Below, piece after piece: positions 24,449 through 32,978 of a DNA stretch of 60,863 nt. Source of the stretch: an uncultured Bacteroidales bacterium (lineage in GTDB: Bacteria; Bacteroidota; Bacteroidia; Bacteroidales; DTU049); contig CAZGIW010000001.1 in assembly GCA_964526285.1 (NCBI GenBank), positions 1 through 60,863 on the forward strand. The letters are read 5' to 3'. Positions within the stretch are counted from its first letter, which is position 1; the number at the start of each line of letters is the position of its first letter. A model generated the notes under the pieces. It saw nothing but the letters and a program-made list of their open reading frames with translations, was not told the origin of the DNA and did not search any database. Both the position numbers and the translations under genes were made by a program.

Positions 24449-25849
24449 ATGAAAAAAACATTATCCTTCGTCTTTTTATGCATGCTCCTCTTTGCTTCTT
24501 TTGCTCAGACACCACAAAAAATGAGCTATCAGGCCGTTATAAGAGACACTTCCGATCAACTTGCTGTGATGCAAACCATTGGAATGAGAATTAGTGTGCT
24601 TCAGGGTTCACCCTCAGGGACTGCTGTATATGTAGAAACACATACTGCATTTACAAATCAAAACGGACTTGTCACTCTCGAAATTGGCGCTGGCACACCT
24701 GTCAGCGGTGTTTTTGCAAACATTGACTGGACCTCCGGAGTATATTATCTGAAAACAGAAACCGATGTAACGGGTGGAACAAACTATGATGTGGTTTCCA
24801 CAACACAAATGCTCAGTGTTCCATATGCGCTTTATGCTGCTGCATCAGAAGCTCCTTTTAATGTGGGCACAGGCCTTTCTCTCACAGGAAACACAATCAA
24901 CGCACTGACAACCAGCCCATTGTGGAATGCCAACTATATTCAAAATATTCCGGTTGGCTCGACCATGCCAAATTACAATGATGTGCTCATATTCAACGGT
25001 TCTGCATGGGCTCCCGGATCCATTGGCGGAGGAACAGGCACAACCATAAACTGTGGGACTAGTTTCAACACAAATTATACAGTGAGAGGCACAGGAAGCA
25101 GCGGGTGGGAATGTACAAATGCTTTGGTAATTACAAGTTCAGGATATGTTGGAATAGGAACAACAAGTCCTTCTTCATCCTACAATCTCACCATTGGCAC
25201 CAACGGATTTTTGGTCAACGGCAGTACAACAACATCAAATATTTATGGCCGCCTGAGAATTGGCAGCACCTCAAGCACAAGTTATGATTTGCAGGTGGAT
25301 GGTCACACATATATTACCAGCGGACTCAGAGTGGGCACATCTTCTTCTCCGCCTTCAAGTGGAATTATTGCTAGTGGAGAAATCCGAACAAATGCAAACT
25401 TCTATCAGGGAAGCAGTTCAACAGGAACCGGAACAGTGATGGTAAGAACTTCGGGGGGTGAACTCAGACCTCAATCTTCAACAATAAAAGTCAAAGAGAA
25501 CGTTCAGCCATTGTCGTTCAATAAGGCCAACTTGTTTGCTTTACGTCCTGTAACCTACAACCTGAAACCCGCCCTTGGTGGAGGAAGTGAAGTGGGACTC
25601 ATAGCCGAAGAGGTGGAAAAAACAATGCCCCAACTGGTCATTTACGGACCTGCACGCCAGTGGGAAGGTGAAACCGGACTCATTTCCACAGACGAAAATG
25701 GAAACGAAATTCTCATCCCCGGACAGGAAGAACCCTATTCGGTATCATATGATCGCCTGGCAATTTATCTGCTTGAAATTGTGAAAGAGCAGGAACAAAG
25801 AATCAATGAACTGGAAAGGTTGGTTGAGGAAATGAAGGATGAAAAATAG
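24449..25849 (+). CDS. Secreted tail-fibre-like protein with C-terminal peptidase S74-type chaperone
   Basis: N-terminal QTPQKMSYQAVIRD...SVPYALYA domain; VGIGTTSP repeats; STIKVKENV..LRPVTY..GLIAEEVE..VSYDRL plus terminal coiled coil. Confidence 0.8.
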   Translation: MKKTLSFVFLCMLLFASFAQTPQKMSYQAVIRDTSDQLAVMQTIGMRISVLQGSPSGTAVYVETHTAFTNQNGLVTLEIGAGTPVSGVFANIDWTSGVYYLKTETDVTGGTNYDVVSTTQMLSVPYALYAAASEAPFNVGTGLSLTGNTINALTTSPLWNANYIQNIPVGSTMPNYNDVLIFNGSAWAPGSIGGGTGTTINCGTSFNTNYTVRGTGSSGWECTNALVITSSGYVGIGTTSPSSSYNLTIGTNGFLVNGSTTTSNIYGRLRIGSTSSTSYDLQVDGHTYITSGLRVGTSSSPPSSGIIASGEIRTNANFYQGSSSTGTGTVMVRTSGGELRPQSSTIKVKENVQPLSFNKANLFALRPVTYNLKPALGGGSEVGLIAEEVEKTMPQLVIYGPARQWEGETGLISTDENGNEILIPGQEEPYSVSYDRLAIYLLEIVKEQEQRINELERLVEEMKDEK

Positions 25850-26670: not shown

Positions 26671-27639
26671 ATGAAGGAAATAGAAATATATAAAGCCAAC
26701 GATTTAAAAATCGAAGTTCGCGTTCAGTTTGAAAAAGACACCGTTTTTCTATCCCAAAAGCAAATGGCGGAGCTTTTCGATAAGGATACTGACACCATTG
26801 GCTTACATTTAAAAAATATTTTTTTGGAAGAAGAACTTGATGAAGATTCAACTACCGAGTTTTTCTCGGTAGTTCAAAAAGAAGGAAATCGCAAGGTAAA
26901 AAGGAATATTAAGTTTTATAACCTTGATGCAATCATATCTGTTGGTTATCGTGTAAATTCCAAAAGAGGAACCCAATTTCGACAGTGGGCTACCCTAAGG
27001 CTTAAGGACTACCTTGTAAAAGGGTATGCAATAAACGAAAAGCGATTGGCAGAAAACCAGCAACAGGTGGAATATTTGAAAACCGGAATTCGTATTTTGA
27101 GTCGTGCTATCACAGAGCAAACCACAGTTGAAGATAGTAATATGTTGCAGTTGTTTGCTAAAGGGCTTGAATTGCTTGATGATTATGATCATGAAAACCT
27201 TGATGCGAAAGGAAAAACCACCGATAAAACATATTATCCTGTGGAACAGGAGTATTTGGAAGTGATTTCCAATATGAAATCAGGGATTGAATCAGATGTT
27301 TTTGCCAAACCAAAAGATAAAGGATTTAAAGGTTCAATAATGCAAATTGAACAAAGTTTCAATGGAAAAGAACTTTATGAATCGATAGAGGAAAAAGCAG
27401 CAATGCTTTTATATCTCATTGTAAAAAACCACTCTTTTGTAGATGGCAACAAACGCATAGGAGCAGCATGCTTCTTGTATTTCTTAAACAAAAATGGCCT
27501 CCTTTTTACAGAAAATAATAATCCATTGCTAAGCAGCGAAGCACTGGCTGCACTGACATTGTTTGTAGCCACAAGCAAACCAGACGAAATGAAAATAGTG
27601 AAGCGACTGATTATAAGTATATTAAACAGGAGCAGATGA
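26671..27639 (+). CDS. RhuM-Fic/Doc fusion protein
   Basis: RhuM N-domain (LSQKQMAELF, YNLDAIISVGYRVNSKRGTQFRQWA) plus Doc-type motif HSFVDGNKR. Confidence 0.92.
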   Translation: MKEIEIYKANDLKIEVRVQFEKDTVFLSQKQMAELFDKDTDTIGLHLKNIFLEEELDEDSTTEFFSVVQKEGNRKVKRNIKFYNLDAIISVGYRVNSKRGTQFRQWATLRLKDYLVKGYAINEKRLAENQQQVEYLKTGIRILSRAITEQTTVEDSNMLQLFAKGLELLDDYDHENLDAKGKTTDKTYYPVEQEYLEVISNMKSGIESDVFAKPKDKGFKGSIMQIEQSFNGKELYESIEEKAAMLLYLIVKNHSFVDGNKRIGAACFLYFLNKNGLLFTENNNPLLSSEALAALTLFVATSKPDEMKIVKRLIISILNRSR

Positions 27640-27651
27640 AGACTAGCAAAG

Positions 27652-27754
27652 CAAAGCAATCCATTCTCACAGCATGGATCTCTCTGCATTTTTTCCTGCC
27701 TGGCGATAAATAGCATTTCATAAACGCTTTTTTGAAGATTTTTGATTATTTTTG
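27652..27754 (+). repeat. ~103-bp non-coding direct repeat, copy 2
   Basis: Matches 26471-26572; starts 12 nt after the Fic gene stop. Confidence 0.9.
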
Positions 27755-28146
27755 AATCAGCTGAGTTGCAGGAAAGTACAACAGTTTCCAATATGGAAAT
27801 AGTTCAAACAGAAGGCCAGCGTGAAGTTATATGGATTGTTGATTTTTATAGGCTGGAAGTAGTTCTTGCTGTAGGCTATCGTGTAAACTCTTCTCAGGCA
27901 ACACAATTCAGGAAATGGGCTACACAAACTTTGAATGATTTTATCATCAAGGGGTTTGTTCTGGATGATGAGCGATTAAAGCAAGGGAAACACTTTGGAC
28001 AGGATTATTTTGATGAATTGTTGGAGCGTATACGTGAGATCAGAGCCAGTGAACGGAGGTTTTACCAAAAAATCACAGATTTGTATGCACTCAGCACCGA
28101 CTATGCCAAGGAAAGCAAAAGCACTTTGAATGCCCTTTTCAGATGA
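27748..28146 (+). pseudogene. RhuM-family gene fragment truncated at both ends
   Basis: IFESAEL..AVGYRVNSSQATQFRKWAT..KGFVLDDERLK..ERIREIRASERRFYQKITDLYA; lacks the N-terminus and the C-terminal half of typical RhuM. Confidence 0.85.
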
Positions 28147-28155
28147 ATATCTTAA

Positions 28156-28407
28156 GAAAACCGCGTTGGAATATTTTCCAAACGTTATATAGTGAATGGA
28201 ATGCTTGAAAAATTTATGGCCTTTGACCTTGTTTTTGGTGAGTATTTTGGAGAATTTACATACTCAATTCACAATCGTGAGTTGACAACAGACTTTATGA
28301 TTTATCCTGGCGGATATGGTTACAAATTTTATTTCAAATGGGAAAAGCGATCAGGTTCATCAGTGATAACAGAATTTTCTGTTTTGAAACCAGAAAGTTA
28401 TATGTAA
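28156..28407 (+). pseudogene. Probable C-terminal remnant or small hypothetical ORF
   Basis: Frame open from 28156 to TAA 28407 (ORF track GTG at 28192); no recognisable motif. Confidence 0.35.
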
Positions 28408-28419
28408 AAAATAATTCAC

Positions 28420-28427
28420 TATCTTTG
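28420..28427 (+). promoter_or_regulatory. Bacteroidota -7 promoter element
   Basis: TATCTTTG, implying a TSS near 28433, where the repeated motif begins; no clear -33 box. Confidence 0.55.
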
Positions 28428-28432
28428 CAAAA

Positions 28433-28525
28433 GCATTAAGAGATTCTCCGGGAAGGGGAACAGCAACCGGGACAGAACACCACGGTGCTAAAATAATGTG
28501 CAGCTACAGCTGAAAAAAAGTTCTG
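28433..28525 (+). ncRNA. Candidate structured RNA motif, copy 1 (unassigned)
   Basis: Shares GGAAGGGGAA, a 24-nt identical core CAACCGGGACAGAACACCACGGTG, ATGTG and AAAAAAAGTTC with copy 2; three hairpins and a possible pseudoknot. Confidence 0.6.
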
Positions 28526-28649
28526 CAATTTGTCATCACCTCTTCCCTGTGTTTCTCCTCATGTGGAATTATTGTTTAACAGTAAATTATTTCACAATGG
28601 AAATAGAGTATTAATTAAAAAAAGGAGGTCATTAACAAATCATTCAAAT

Positions 28650-28741
28650 GCATCAGGAGTTTCCTCATTGGAAGGGGAATGCCAACCGGGACAGAACACC
28701 ACGGTGGAAAAAAGATGTGAGCGTAAGGCTAAAAAAAGTTC
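28650..28741 (+). ncRNA. Candidate structured RNA motif, copy 2 (unassigned)
   Basis: Core offset 219 bp from copy 1; compensatory G-C to C-G change at the base of the central stem. Confidence 0.6.
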
Positions 28742-28806
28742 AAAATACCTCATTTTGCTCGCATCAGTTAATAATTAAGTTTTAAAAAAAATTAAAAAAA
28801 CGCAAA

Positions 28807-29568
28807 ATGAAAACAAATCAAAATCAATTAAACGAGCCACAGGCTTATGAAATGACAAATTCAAAAAATCAAACCTTTGTTAAATGGGCAAAACCACTAA
28901 ACTCAAAAGAAGAAATACGCGCATGCCTGAATAATGACCATCGGCTTTTTATGCCGGTTCTAGCTTTGCAGCTGCCTCAAGAGGAACCGATTATTCTTAA
29001 ACATCGTTATCCTTTTCATTTGTGTGTTTTACACATAAATAATAAGGGAGTTATTTACAACACAACGCAGATTCGTTCTGAAAAAGAAACACCACTCAAC
29101 GAAATTTCTTCTCTGATGTTGATTGTGCCTGAAGATTTTTGTGTCTTGTATGGCGTTTCAGCAGACAAATCATTAATACGGTTAATTCAGGGCAACGATT
29201 TCACGAAAACAGGCCAAATCAAACCGGGCGGAATTGTGAGAAGCATGGGCGCTGAAGAAATAGCACAAATCATAATTGCCGACAAAGAAGGTGATGGTTT
29301 GAGAAGTAAACTGCCCTGGATTTATGTTTGGTATCATAATCTTTTGTTTGTAGTTGAAAGAATAAGCTTTCCTTCAGTTGCAGCCAGCAGTCCCATGAGT
29401 GAAGAAATTTGCAGAGTGGTTGAATTACTGAGTAAACAAGGTATTGATTCAATATTTCGCGAAGCAGTATATCCCAGAATTTTTTTCGGCAAGCATGAAG
29501 AAATAACAACCTCATGGACGTGGTGGGGCATGGAAAACAGGTTAAAGTTTGTGAGGCAACTTGTTTAA
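28807..29568 (+). CDS. Hypothetical cytoplasmic protein (253 aa)
   Basis: Long ORF with A-rich Bacteroidota-type initiation region; no signal peptide, TM or recognisable motif. Confidence 0.7.
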   Translation: MKTNQNQLNEPQAYEMTNSKNQTFVKWAKPLNSKEEIRACLNNDHRLFMPVLALQLPQEEPIILKHRYPFHLCVLHINNKGVIYNTTQIRSEKETPLNEISSLMLIVPEDFCVLYGVSADKSLIRLIQGNDFTKTGQIKPGGIVRSMGAEEIAQIIIADKEGDGLRSKLPWIYVWYHNLLFVVERISFPSVAASSPMSEEICRVVELLSKQGIDSIFREAVYPRIFFGKHEEITTSWTWWGMENRLKFVRQLV

Positions 29569-30217: not shown

Positions 30218-30222
30218 TTTTG

Positions 30223-30296
30223 CTCCCCCTCTTGGACTTGAACCAAGGACCCTCTGATTAACAGTCAGATGCTCTAACCAACTGAGCTAAGGAGGA
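30223..30296 (-). tRNA. tRNA-Asn(GUU)
   Basis: Reverse complement TCCTCCTTAGCTCAGTTGGTTAGAGCATCTGACTGTTAATCAGAGGGTCCTTGGTTCAAGTCCAAGAGGGGGAG folds as a cloverleaf; TAATTTTG box about 45 nt upstream. Confidence 0.97.
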
Positions 30297-30401: not shown

Positions 30402-31604
30402 TTATTCAACATACTTTCCATAGTCATATACGATATAACCGGCCTGATTCACCGGCGTTTCCGTCCCTTTGGCTATGTATATCTTCCTTTTGCAGGGAAG
30501 AAAAACCACACTCTGCACTGTGCCTTTGTTGGCAACACTTGACCAGTCGAACAAATTGCCATCAAAACCGGACATAACATCCAAAACATCATTGATCTGG
30601 ATGTTATTTCTTTGTTCAAAAAAATTCTGCAAATCTGTATATCTGCGTTCACTGAATTCAAATGGAGGACTTAAATTCAACATGGTTTCGCTAACAAAAT
30701 GATTTGTCGCCACTGAAAATTCTGTTCCTTCTACTGCAACAACTGTATCCGGAGTAATTTCAAACACCACAGTTTTGTTTTCTCTGCACGATGAAACCAT
30801 CAGATTGTTGCCAATGGTACGCTGGTGAGAGTTTAGTATTCTTTCTACATCACTTACTTTAGCCGACTTCTCAATTATTATTCTGTATAAAATACCCGAT
30901 GGAATTCCGGTTTTGTTTTCGTTGACCCTGGCAGTATGACTACTGAGGGTAATCCCTCTGTAATTGGTTGATGTCAAAGCCCCAATGTATCCGGGAAAAC
31001 CTACAGAAATAAACTTTTGTTTTCTATAGTGAAACACCACATTCTTGTCTGATAAAACATCAATGGGATAATCGAGATTGCGGGCATGAAACAGTGTGTT
31101 GTTCTTTTTGCAAACTGCAGCCGAAATGCTTGAGCACGAAGTAAGATGCAACAAATCATCATAGGTGTTGAACAACAGAATATCATCATAACCAACACCC
31201 GATCCTTCTGCAACGCCCTTCATTTCTTCTCTGAAAATTTTTGGAATATGTTTCTCCATTTCTCTGGCCTGTGATAAACTCCACATATATTTGTAATGTC
31301 CCTCAAATGTTGTAGTATCATACACTACCTCATACATAATTCTCACATTCTCCTGTATCAGTTGGCTCAACATTGTGCCATGCTGAAATCCTGCATCGTA
31401 GCCACTACCAGCAATATATATCATTGGAATGGTTTCCAGAAACTGAATTTCATCTGTATTGACATTATCCCAGATGTTTATTTCCGCTTTAATCTGATTA
31501 AAAGGAGGGTTGTTGTTTTGCTTACAGGATGATAAACTATATAAACACAGAAAAAGAATATATGCAAAATGTTTTCTCTGCTTCAGCAAAATCTCTTTAC
31601 TCAT
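30402..31604 (-). CDS. C45 family autoproteolytic acyltransferase/hydrolase, probable lipoprotein
   Basis: GFQHG, EEMKGVAEG, SCSSISA (Ntn Cys), HARNLDY and ATNHF motifs; lipobox-like LSSC. Confidence 0.85.
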   Translation of the reverse strand: MSKEILLKQRKHFAYILFLCLYSLSSCKQNNNPPFNQIKAEINIWDNVNTDEIQFLETIPMIYIAGSGYDAGFQHGTMLSQLIQENVRIMYEVVYDTTTFEGHYKYMWSLSQAREMEKHIPKIFREEMKGVAEGSGVGYDDILLFNTYDDLLHLTSCSSISAAVCKKNNTLFHARNLDYPIDVLSDKNVVFHYRKQKFISVGFPGYIGALTSTNYRGITLSSHTARVNENKTGIPSGILYRIIIEKSAKVSDVERILNSHQRTIGNNLMVSSCRENKTVVFEITPDTVVAVEGTEFSVATNHFVSETMLNLSPPFEFSERRYTDLQNFFEQRNNIQINDVLDVMSGFDGNLFDWSSVANKGTVQSVVFLPCKRKIYIAKGTETPVNQAGYIVYDYGKYVE

Positions 31605-31700
31605 TTTCAAACCTTTTATTTTGACTGCAAACTTAGAAAAATTCAATAAAAGCCTGTCATTATGCCTGAACTTTTTTTTATCTTTGCAATAAAAAAACCA

Positions 31701-32978
31701 ATGAAACTTAATTTGTTTTTCATTTTTAAATTGTTTGTAATAACTTCTCAACTTATTGCTCAACCGCTCAATCCATGGACACCTCCAGAGTATTTTCCAT
31801 CAAAAGCCGTATTAATTGAGTGGGATTTCAATTCCTCAACATGGAGTCTGTATTCTGAACTCATTGAGCAATCAAGCCTTGCAGTGCCGGTTATTCTGGT
31901 TGTAAATAATCTTACCGAGGAAAATCAGATGAGATCTTTGCTCACAACTGATGGAGTATCCCTTGCAAATATCAGCTTTGTGCATGTTCCGTGCGAGCGC
32001 ATGTGGATACGTGATCATGGTCCGCTTGCAGTGATGACAGATAACGGAGTGGCATATATTGATTTTGATGATCTTGCAAACAGTGGACTGGATGAAGATT
32101 TACCAACAAATCTTGCTTTGGCATGGGGACTTCAAAGCTATCAGTTGCCATACATCTTCTGCGGAGGCAATTTTATGGTTAACAGCCATAACACCCTGTT
32201 TACCACAACCAGAGTTTATACAAACAACTCGTCTTACTCACAATCAGTTATTGACAATGTTTTTGAAACCTATATGGGAATTACTGATATTGTTACTTTT
32301 AAGGCGCAACATAGTGATTACTGGGGACATATTGATATGCAAATCAAGCTTCTGGACGATACAACATTTATTATTTCAAGTGTGACTTTGGGCTCCGGTC
32401 CAAATTATGACAGTCTGGAAGCCAATTACAATAAATTGCTCACTCTTACCGGTCCTCATGGAAAACCATACAGAATTCAGAAAATTCCCATGGCCGACAA
32501 TTGGAAAACCTATGCAAATTCAGTGATTTTAAACAATACAGTGCTGATTCCATTTTTCAATCATGTGCTTGATTCCAATGCATACAATATTTATCAGCAG
32601 TTGCTTCCTTCATATACAATTGTGGGCATCAACAGTAATGCCATTATTGGTTGGGAAGGTTCGTTGCATTGTATCACCATGCAGTTGTTTGATGATAGCA
32701 CAGTGAATATTATTGAATCACTTTCTGTTCGTGATGATGTTTTTAGTTTGTATCCCAATCCGTTGCAAAGTGGTGGTTTGTTGCATGTGCTGCTTTCAAT
32801 GGACAGGGTGGAAACAGCAGTAGTAAATATTTATGATTTGAACGGAAAACTTCTTCAAAGCGAAAATATACTTAACGGTCAGAGTTTTTCAATTGAATGG
32901 ACTCATCCAGCAGGCAAATATCTGGTAGAAGTGGTGACACAGGAAGGAAAATTTGTGAAAAACTTAATCGGCTTATAG
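31701..32978 (+). CDS. Agmatine/peptidylarginine deiminase family protein with T9SS CTD
   Basis: WIRDHGP, GGN, GHID and GSLHCIT catalytic motifs; signal peptide; YPNP...GKYLVEV...KNLI CTD. Confidence 0.9.
   Translation: MKLNLFFIFKLFVITSQLIAQPLNPWTPPEYFPSKAVLIEWDFNSSTWSLYSELIEQSSLAVPVILVVNNLTEENQMRSLLTTDGVSLANISFVHVPCERMWIRDHGPLAVMTDNGVAYIDFDDLANSGLDEDLPTNLALAWGLQSYQLPYIFCGGNFMVNSHNTLFTTTRVYTNNSSYSQSVIDNVFETYMGITDIVTFKAQHSDYWGHIDMQIKLLDDTTFIISSVTLGSGPNYDSLEANYNKLLTLTGPHGKPYRIQKIPMADNWKTYANSVILNNTVLIPFFNHVLDSNAYNIYQQLLPSYTIVGINSNAIIGWEGSLHCITMQLFDDSTVNIIESLSVRDDVFSLYPNPLQSGGLLHVLLSMDRVETAVVNIYDLNGKLLQSENILNGQSFSIEWTHPAGKYLVEVVTQEGKFVKNLIGL

Follow-up and report, generated by a model that had tools for sequence, protein, structure and literature searches.

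SAM-I/IV riboswitches are a variant found in several phyla and in marine metagenomes, with a P2 that lacks the internal loop of SAM-I and SAM-IV, as described by Weinberg et al. 2010 (PMC2864571). Tandem arrangements of SAM riboswitches were collected by Sherlock et al. 2022 (PMC9481103), who call a tandem pseudo-cooperative when several complete riboswitches for the same ligand follow one another ahead of one ORF. Their main text gives 164 SAM-I doublets, 44 SAM-II doublets and 149 SAM-II/SAM-V tandems, together with mixed tandems in which SAM-II is followed by SAM-I/IV (7) or SAM-I/IV by SAM-II (2). A SAM-I/IV homodoublet is not among these combinations. Another paper (PMC12452182) pools all SAM classes under one heading in its main part, and a term search of its supplement returned SAM-I-IV in class lists only. 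Full-text literature searches for SAM-I/IV tandems, or for riboswitch combined with defense island and S-adenosylmethionine, found none.

Here we describe a pair of SAM-I/IV repeats upstream of an orphan gene, hereafter referred to as gene X. The pair lies in a 60,863-base stretch of DNA that was analysed as a whole and is called the window below; the L numbers designate the loci that were compared with it.

Assignment of the repeat pair to the SAM-I/IV class

A repeat search of the window revealed a single direct-repeat family (28451-28518 and 28670-28737, 79% identity, spacing 219). It belongs to two motif copies of about 100 nt each, whose starts are 219 nt apart and which open with GCATTAAGAG from 28433 (copy 1) and GCATCAGGAG from 28650 (copy 2). 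The copies are not arranged head to tail, being separated by 116 nt of unrelated sequence. The 24-mer CAACCGGGACAGAACACCACGGTG was found at 28464-28487 and 28683-28706 only when the window was searched with up to three mismatches, and at the same tolerance none of 100 shuffled windows contained any match. The two copies, their 219-bp offset and the identical 24-mer reported in the initial annotation of this DNA were thus all recovered. Since contigs from three public metagenome runs, belonging to three studies, bridge both copies with 0-1 differences, the doublet is real DNA. A joint that skips 144 nt (28623 to 28768) was seen in contig X12; this joint, with a 28-nt side of 85% likeness, was taken as an AT-rich cross-match from another organism. 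Coordinates of the features are collected in Table 1.

Table 1. Features of the repeat pair and of its surroundings (window positions)
Feature	Position	Strand	Basis or remark
RhuM-Fic gene, defence neighbour	26671-27639		PADLOC candidate PDC-S23, E 2e-124
Promoter-like box TATCTTTG (TAnnTTTG)	28420..28427	+	motif search; 5 nt before copy 1
SAM-I/IV aptamer, copy 1	28428..28528	+	RF01725, 64.2 bits, E 2.4e-10, model 1-99 of 99
Copy 1 P1	28433-37 with 28495-99	+	window letters and cmscan alignment
Copy 1 P2	28444-49 with 28455-60	+	window letters and cmscan alignment
Copy 1 P3	28462-71 with 28480-89	+	window letters and cmscan alignment
Copy 1 P4	28501-04 with 28509-12	+	window letters and cmscan alignment
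Copy 1 pseudoknot	28473-78 with 28520-25	+	loop CAGAAC complementary to GTTCTG
Copy 1 expression platform	28539..28596	+	predicted folds
5-codon ORF ATG GAA ATA GAG TAT TAA (MEIEY*)	28597..28614	+	sequence reading; proposed stump of a lost metK
A-run and GGAGGTC spacer	28617..28649	+	orthologous to the spacer after the metK stop in L011
SAM-I/IV aptamer, copy 2	28645..28746	+	RF01725, 54.0 bits, E 4.2e-08, model 1-99 of 99
Copy 2 P1	28650-54 with 28714-18	+	
Copy 2 P2	28660-66 with 28674-79	+	
Copy 2 P3	28682-90 with 28699-707	+	
Copy 2 P4	28720-22 with 28728-30	+	
Copy 2 pseudoknot	28694-97 with 28738-41	+	loop GAAC complementary to GTTC
Copy 2 expression platform	28750..28810	+	ViennaRNA folds
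Gene X, 253 aa	28807..29568	+	ORF; rare two-domain family
Bridging contig X1	28149-28742		0 differences; run may be the source sample
Bridging contig X8	28512-28712		
Bridging contig X12	28340-28642		1 difference

The repeats had initially been presented as an unassigned motif, a claim to be given up if Rfam held a strong match to them. A scan of the whole window against Rfam 15 at the gathering threshold returned four matches, two to tRNA and two to RF01725, the SAM-I/IV riboswitch. The latter exceed the RF01725 gathering score of 41.1 bits by 23 bits (copy 1, 64.2 bits) and 13 bits (copy 2, 54.0 bits), and because both copies are matched over the full length of the model, the claim of a new motif is refuted. 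There was no further RF01725 match in the genome (3.93 Mb, 94% complete). Between positions 28300 and 28900 no other Rfam family was matched at E <= 1 except for a chance-level snoRNA (22.6 bits against a gathering score of 50). Neither preQ1-II nor a type III antitoxin family, the two comparisons drawn in the initial annotation, was matched in this interval at that cut-off.

All of P1-P4 are present in both cmscan alignments, and P2 is a plain 6-bp hairpin in each copy. The hairpins previously labeled A, B and C are P2, P3 and P4, the conserved GCATyArGAG is the 5' strand of P1 together with J1/2, and ATGTG closes P1. Nucleotides of the ligand core (J1/2 A-GA, CAACC...ACGGUG and the A-rich J3/1) form invariant columns in an 11-sequence alignment and match the Rfam consensus line. 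Thus, the hairpins and the loop-to-tail pseudoknot that had been proposed from the letters do exist, and constitute the real architecture of a SAM-I/IV aptamer. The same riboswitch class precedes metK in two relatives (L006 and L017). We conclude that both repeats are almost certainly aptamers of the known SAM-I/IV class and, judging by their sequence, should bind SAM.

Among the functions offered in the initial annotation, that of a tandem riboswitch holds as far as form is concerned. The readings as ribozyme, guide RNA or repeat RNA of the type III antitoxin kind find no support. For these, as for a riboswitch of a new class, one could argue only from the repeat and the pseudoknot, both of which are explained by membership in the SAM-I/IV class; with full-length RF01725 matches in both copies and no other Rfam family matched, these options can be practically dismissed. 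In type III toxin-antitoxin loci head-to-tail repeats lie directly before a ToxN/AbiE-type toxin. This arrangement is absent here: there are only two copies, they are not head to tail, and gene X has no match to any Pfam or PADLOC toxin family.

Base pairing was further analysed with 13 aptamers, comprising the two window copies and 11 from relatives and from loci encoding X homologues. In the alignment of these sequences, whose fitting to the covariance model favours the structure, 85.7% of cells form standard pairs compared to 71.1 +/- 1.6 in shuffles (0 of 500 reach the observed value) and to at most 46% when partner registers are slid. Both sides have changed in 16 of the 23 pairs, so covariation support, which had been rated as thin when two copies were at hand, is no longer so.

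The pairing of the P3 loop with the tail, which is absent from the Rfam structure line, is presumably the known SAM-I/IV pseudoknot. The 6-bp pseudoknot of copy 1 is reached by 3 of 1000 shuffled tails; that of copy 2 has 4 bp, is reached by 142 of 1000 shuffled tails and is weak alone. Judged by reading, 8 of the 13 aptamers retain the pairing despite sequence change (a run of 4 or more pairs downstream of the A-run being required), the partners varying between GAAC/GTTC, AGGACA/TGTCCT, GCTTAT/ATAAGC, TCCAATA/TATTGGA, GTGTAACA/TGTTACGT and CATAAC/GTTATG. Fewer than 35 of 1000 shuffled tails reach the pseudoknots of copy 1, L008, L010 and L017 (each taken separately). No clear pseudoknot was found within the Rfam span in L003, L005 and L007, and the best pairings of L006 and L018 fall in the P4 region and were therefore excluded from the count.

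The P3 stem-loop, in which the shared 24-mer lies, is identical in both copies; P1, P2, P4 and the expression platforms differ. The bases of the P3 loop are different in the orthologous L011 aptamer and in the metK-type aptamer L017. The identity of P3 suggests a short patch of gene conversion between the copies.

Promoter-like box and expression platforms

The promoter-like box that had been noted 5 nt before copy 1 was found in that place (Table 1). Its pattern, TAnnTTTG, is what we take to be the -7 promoter element of Bacteroidota. It is the sole + strand occurrence between 28420 and the start codon of X, and the next + strand match does not come before 28961. The pattern is not enriched in the window (72 found, 81.7 expected); the same box precedes the aptamer by a few nt in L003, L004, L006, L007 and L017. 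The weight of the box therefore comes from its position, shared with relatives, and not from enrichment. No terminator-like sites were found in the interval 28100-29000. It appears from the sequence that both aptamers belong to one 5' leader that starts just after the box and would be made as a single transcript.

The platform of copy 1 contains a segment, CCTCTTCCC (28539-47), that is complementary to the 3' arm of P2, and a 13-mer, GTTTCTCCTCATG (28551-63), complementary to the 5' strand of P1 and J1/2. A predicted hairpin (28562-69 with 28589-96) ends at the AUG (28597-99) of the 5-codon ORF. Since this hairpin next to the AUG is present whether or not the aptamer pairs are enforced, the predicted folds give no sign of switching by copy 1. 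Whole leaders could not be told apart by gappy global identity (65-84%), and for this reason platforms were compared by local alignment against shuffles. Platform 1 was found to resemble the metK leaders of L017 (z 3.0, 4 of 300 shuffles) and L006 (z 3.3, 3 of 300 shuffles), with z <= 1.1 for each of 7 other platforms; its 13-mer matches the L017 metK leader at 12 of 13 positions. The peptide encoded by the 5-codon ORF, MEIEY, resembles the MNAEY start of L008 MetK (N-terminus MNAEYLFTSESV), a likeness that is no more than suggestive, since five codons do not allow a statistical test. Copy 1 has the top RF01725 score among all 13 aptamers.

Folding of the copy 2 leader with ViennaRNA gave two alternative structures. 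When the aptamer pairs were enforced, as a proxy for the SAM-bound state, the anti-start segment TCATTTTGC (28750-58) paired with GCAAAATGA (28802-10), which holds the start codon of X (-28.2 kcal/mol). In the free MFE structure (-33.4), GATGTGAGCG (28714-23), composed of the 3' strand of P1 and the 5' arm of P4, paired with TGCTCGCATC (28756-65); P1 and P4 were broken and the anti-start helix, whose segment is overlapped by the new helix, was gone. L011 has retained both of these platform 2 elements (z 12.6 for the platform, 0 of 300 shuffles). Copy 2 is predicted to be an ordinary translational OFF switch for X. With SAM present, P1, P4 and the pseudoknot would be held, leaving TCATTTTGC free to pair with GCAAAATGA, so that the start codon would be buried and X would be OFF. 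With SAM absent, GATGTGAGCG would pair with TGCTCGCATC and occupy part of the anti-start segment; the start codon would then be free and X would be ON.

Gene X and its genomic contexts

The protein encoded by gene X has no match among Pfam, NCBIfam and PADLOC models. A full HMMER scan of 1.84 billion representatives revealed X homologues in 16 representative clusters at E <= 1e-10, and a word-indexed search of 5.8 billion proteins returned only X itself and one 50%-identical protein. In a 401-genome sample of the order, X was found in its own genome only; one further candidate (E 2.6e-4) contained 5 internal stops and was dismissed. No relatives were found among viral contigs. The AF2 model of X has a pLDDT of 85 and a pTM of 0.83. 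Its N-terminal domain (5-128) resembles 3pjy (Z 14.4, rmsd 3.0, 123 residues aligned) and 3m7a (Z 12.4), two structural-genomics proteins without assigned function. The C-terminal domain, modelled alone with a pLDDT of 91, carries the conserved motifs GLRS..P..YVWYHDLLF and TWWGMEN and has no significant structural match (best Z 3.8; best Foldseek E 0.33). A string of structure matches hinting at a PD-(D/E)XK nuclease was rejected, all of the scores being non-significant. The highest feature score in the ESM Atlas, 0.85, linked X to unnamed clusters and is below the meaningful level; the Atlas model has a pLDDT of 0.30. Most of the invariant residues (drawn from L, S, P, Y, W, T and G) are hydrophobic or aromatic. 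As they do not look like a catalytic set, X may be a binding protein and not an enzyme. Complex prediction for L008 MetK and the neighbouring X gave no verdict (score 0.00, mark 0.32) and bears on binding in neither direction.

Eight distinct X loci were compared: the window, L003 (the same as L009), L008, L010, L011, L012, L013 and L014. RF01725 is located directly upstream of X in five of the eight (window, L009, L008, L010 and L011), including L010 from Chitinophagales, another order. In L012, L013 and L014, X starts 11 nt after an ORF of 282-285 aa and has no riboswitch directly upstream. The gene for MetK adjoins X in two of the eight loci. In L008 the order is SAM-I/IV, X and, 5 nt later, metK (NCBIfam metK equivalog, 495 bits); in L011 it is metK (Pfam S-AdoMet_synt_M and _C), its stop codon, a spacer, SAM-I/IV and X. 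Defence-type genes are found beside X in five of the eight loci: the RhuM-Fic gene in the window, a PglZ-domain ORF (Pfam) and a BrxA-like ORF (PADLOC) in L008, Mrr and PD-(D/E)XK genes in L012, HNH in L013 and AIPR in L014.

Several observations were made in passing. The 282-285-aa proteins (L012 2138-2989, L013 1463-2320, L014 1499-2347) are conserved and translationally coupled to X; they match nothing in Pfam, NCBIfam or PADLOC, contain an R-N-x-x-M-H stretch that by eye is reminiscent of the HEPN Rx4H motif, and the riboswitch-less pair that they form with X adjoins Mrr, HNH or AIPR genes. In L008 a divergent gene of the nucleoside phosphorylase/nucleosidase superfamily (2003-2806, - strand; Pfam PNP_UDP_1, E 1e-27) lies upstream of riboswitch, X and metK, and is below every NCBIfam equivalog cut-off, that of MTA/SAH nucleosidase included. 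Single SAM-I/IV riboswitches of the same order also precede genes other than X, namely L004 1501-2394 (244 aa) and L007 1112-1902 (214 aa), both without a Pfam family, and short ORFs of 69-75 aa in L005 (oriented 1501-1880) and L016 (oriented 1501-2024). The 244-aa gene after the L004 riboswitch was ruled out as a relative of X (hhalign probability 0.08). By eye, its product shares a TL.DFTG motif with a 130-aa ORF upstream in L007.

In the window, the intact RhuM-Fic gene is followed immediately by a truncated second RhuM gene (27742-28146, + strand, 134 aa; Virulence_RhuM profile 2-116 of 252, E 1e-52) that ends 280 nt upstream of the riboswitch pair and is a sign of local gene decay. The locus has no island signature in its composition (GC 0.34-0.45). 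A tRNA-Asn(GTT) gene (30222-30296, - strand) is found 650 nt downstream of X. Other genes nearby encode a 466-aa protein with a Peptidase_S74 (endosialidase chaperone) domain (24449-25849, + strand), an acyl-CoA:6-APA acyltransferase-family protein (30402-31763, - strand) and a Porphyromonas-type peptidylarginine deiminase with a T9SS sorting tail (31662-32978, + strand).

Apart from the two SAM-I/IV copies, which would serve the orphan gene X, the searches revealed no SAM riboswitch in the genome. SAM-I, the SAM-II long-loop variant and SAM-IV gave no match in this genome; neither did SAM_alpha and SAM-VI, for which the control genomes were silent too, so that these two blanks carry no weight. 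The only metK of the genome is on another contig (L015, C6:44442-47876, ATG at L015 772), and there were no Rfam matches around it at E <= 1 within 3.4 kb.

Gene functions have been successfully traced through the riboswitches associated with the genes. Because X has a SAM-I/IV leader in two orders and metK next to it in two loci, it is a new candidate for a role in SAM homeostasis, perhaps with a connection to phage defence. What remains of interest at this locus is gene X, the RNA itself being textbook. SAM-dependent defences such as BREX can be disabled by a phage SAM lyase, according to a preprint (bioRxiv 10.1101/2023.02.27.530186). One could imagine that X, sometimes with an extra metK, forms a defence-island module that is switched on when SAM falls, the SAM-I/IV riboswitch sensing that phages attack the SAM pool (e.g. 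by SAM lyases, which would knock out SAM-dependent restriction and BREX). This reading is prompted by the predicted de-repression of X at low SAM, by its occurrence in defence islands and by its pairing, twice, with an extra metK, and we regard it as a long shot. If true, X would be a countermeasure or an abortive effector released only on SAM collapse, and a doubled riboswitch would help to keep it tightly off.

Origin of the doublet and relation to known tandems

Taken as a whole, the statement that a SAM-I/IV pair occupies one leader, that copy 2 switches X and that the doublet was left by deletion of metK is, on balance, probable. The ancestral order would have been promoter, SAM-I/IV, metK, SAM-I/IV and X. 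Deletion of the metK between the two riboswitches would have produced the doublet and the 5-codon stump, and copy 1 would be a recent relic that still supplies X with a promoter. The proposal is based on the order metK-spacer-SAM-I/IV-X in L011 and on homology to this locus that starts after the mini-ORF. The alignment of the second unit of the window with L011 begins at the A-run right after the mini-ORF (window 28618, L011 about 983, some 25 nt past the metK stop at 957-959) and continues through aptamer 2 into the coding region of X (score 165). Also in favour of the deletion, both L008 and L011 place metK beside X and SAM-I/IV, the best alignment partners of platform 1 are the two metK leaders known from the order (L006 and L017), and the single metK of the genome is elsewhere. 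That the neighbourhood has lost sequence before is indicated by the truncated RhuM gene 280 nt upstream. On the other side, the intact order riboswitch-metK-riboswitch-X was found in none of the genomes examined, and the L011 contig begins inside metK, so a riboswitch before that metK is assumed. The link between platform 1 and the metK leaders is modest (z about 3) and owes most of its strength to a single 13-mer, and the folds of copy 1 give no sign of switching. An extra event, either gene conversion or partial duplication, is needed to account for the P3 that both copies share, since its loop bases are not those of L011 and L017.

The main rival to the deletion is a selected pseudo-cooperative tandem, in which two SAM-I/IV OFF switches in series would make repression of X tighter or steeper. 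Both aptamers are intact and high-scoring, a single promoter-like box precedes the pair, no terminator-like site separates its members, and the arrangement is stable in contigs of three runs. The top score of copy 1 among the 13 aptamers would be expected under ongoing selection and equally after a recent deletion. Homotypic SAM tandems are common, as the main-text counts of SAM-I and SAM-II doublets (164 and 44, PMC9481103) illustrate, and tight control could be useful if X were harmful when mis-expressed, as the defence-island setting might suggest. However, platform 1 adjoins an AUG and a 5-codon ORF of its own, at a distance of 210 nt from the start codon of X, and has no terminator, and therefore no evident route by which it would act on X. 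Two overlapping genome samples, one of 101 relatives and one of 151 genomes of the order, contained RF01725 in 6 and 9 genomes, respectively, the genome studied here being counted in both. The nine other RF01725-bearing genomes have one copy each (one of them below the cut-off), which leaves the doublet in this genome only, among the 8 X loci and 10 RF01725-bearing genomes. Together with the L011 homology breakpoint, which falls exactly after the mini-ORF, this makes a selected tandem rather unlikely.

The Listeria SAM riboswitch fragments SreA and SreB provide a model for a different role of copy 1. As an orphan riboswitch, copy 1 might give a small SAM-responsive transcript acting in trans, or might, through the 5-codon ORF, regulate read-through into X (polarity). 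Such a role would agree with its own promoter-like box, its complete platform without a real gene and its good preservation (64.2 bits). Yet no terminator-like site follows copy 1, there is no known target, and the proposal adds nothing that a relic of the metK leader would need; we consider it very improbable. Formation of the doublet by metK deletion thus remains our preferred explanation. A homotypic SAM-I/IV doublet that appears to have been formed by gene loss means that tandem riboswitches can arise without selection for digital control, which is a caution for tandem-riboswitch catalogues.

Compared with the SAM-I/IV class (RF01725; PMC2864571), both copies have the same P1-P4, a P2 without internal loop, the CAACC...ACGGUG core, the pseudoknot of the A-rich tail and a position in a 5' leader. 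The aptamers show no difference from the class; the gene predicted to be regulated here is no known SAM or methionine gene. The locus shares with tandem same-ligand riboswitches the presence of two complete aptamers for one ligand in one intergenic region, and if the pair were a selected tandem, it would be akin to the described tandem TPP, SAM-I and SAM-II riboswitches. It differs from them in that the first platform serves a 5-codon ORF and not a shared gene. As far as we have checked, neither the homodoublet nor the gene association has been reported before, although each belongs to a known kind and the aptamer itself is already known. The closest counterpart of the copy 2 leader is the internal, mid-operon riboswitch of L011, to which it is orthologous in spacer, aptamer, platform and X start; the gene that precedes the internal riboswitch in L011 is reduced to 5 codons in the window.
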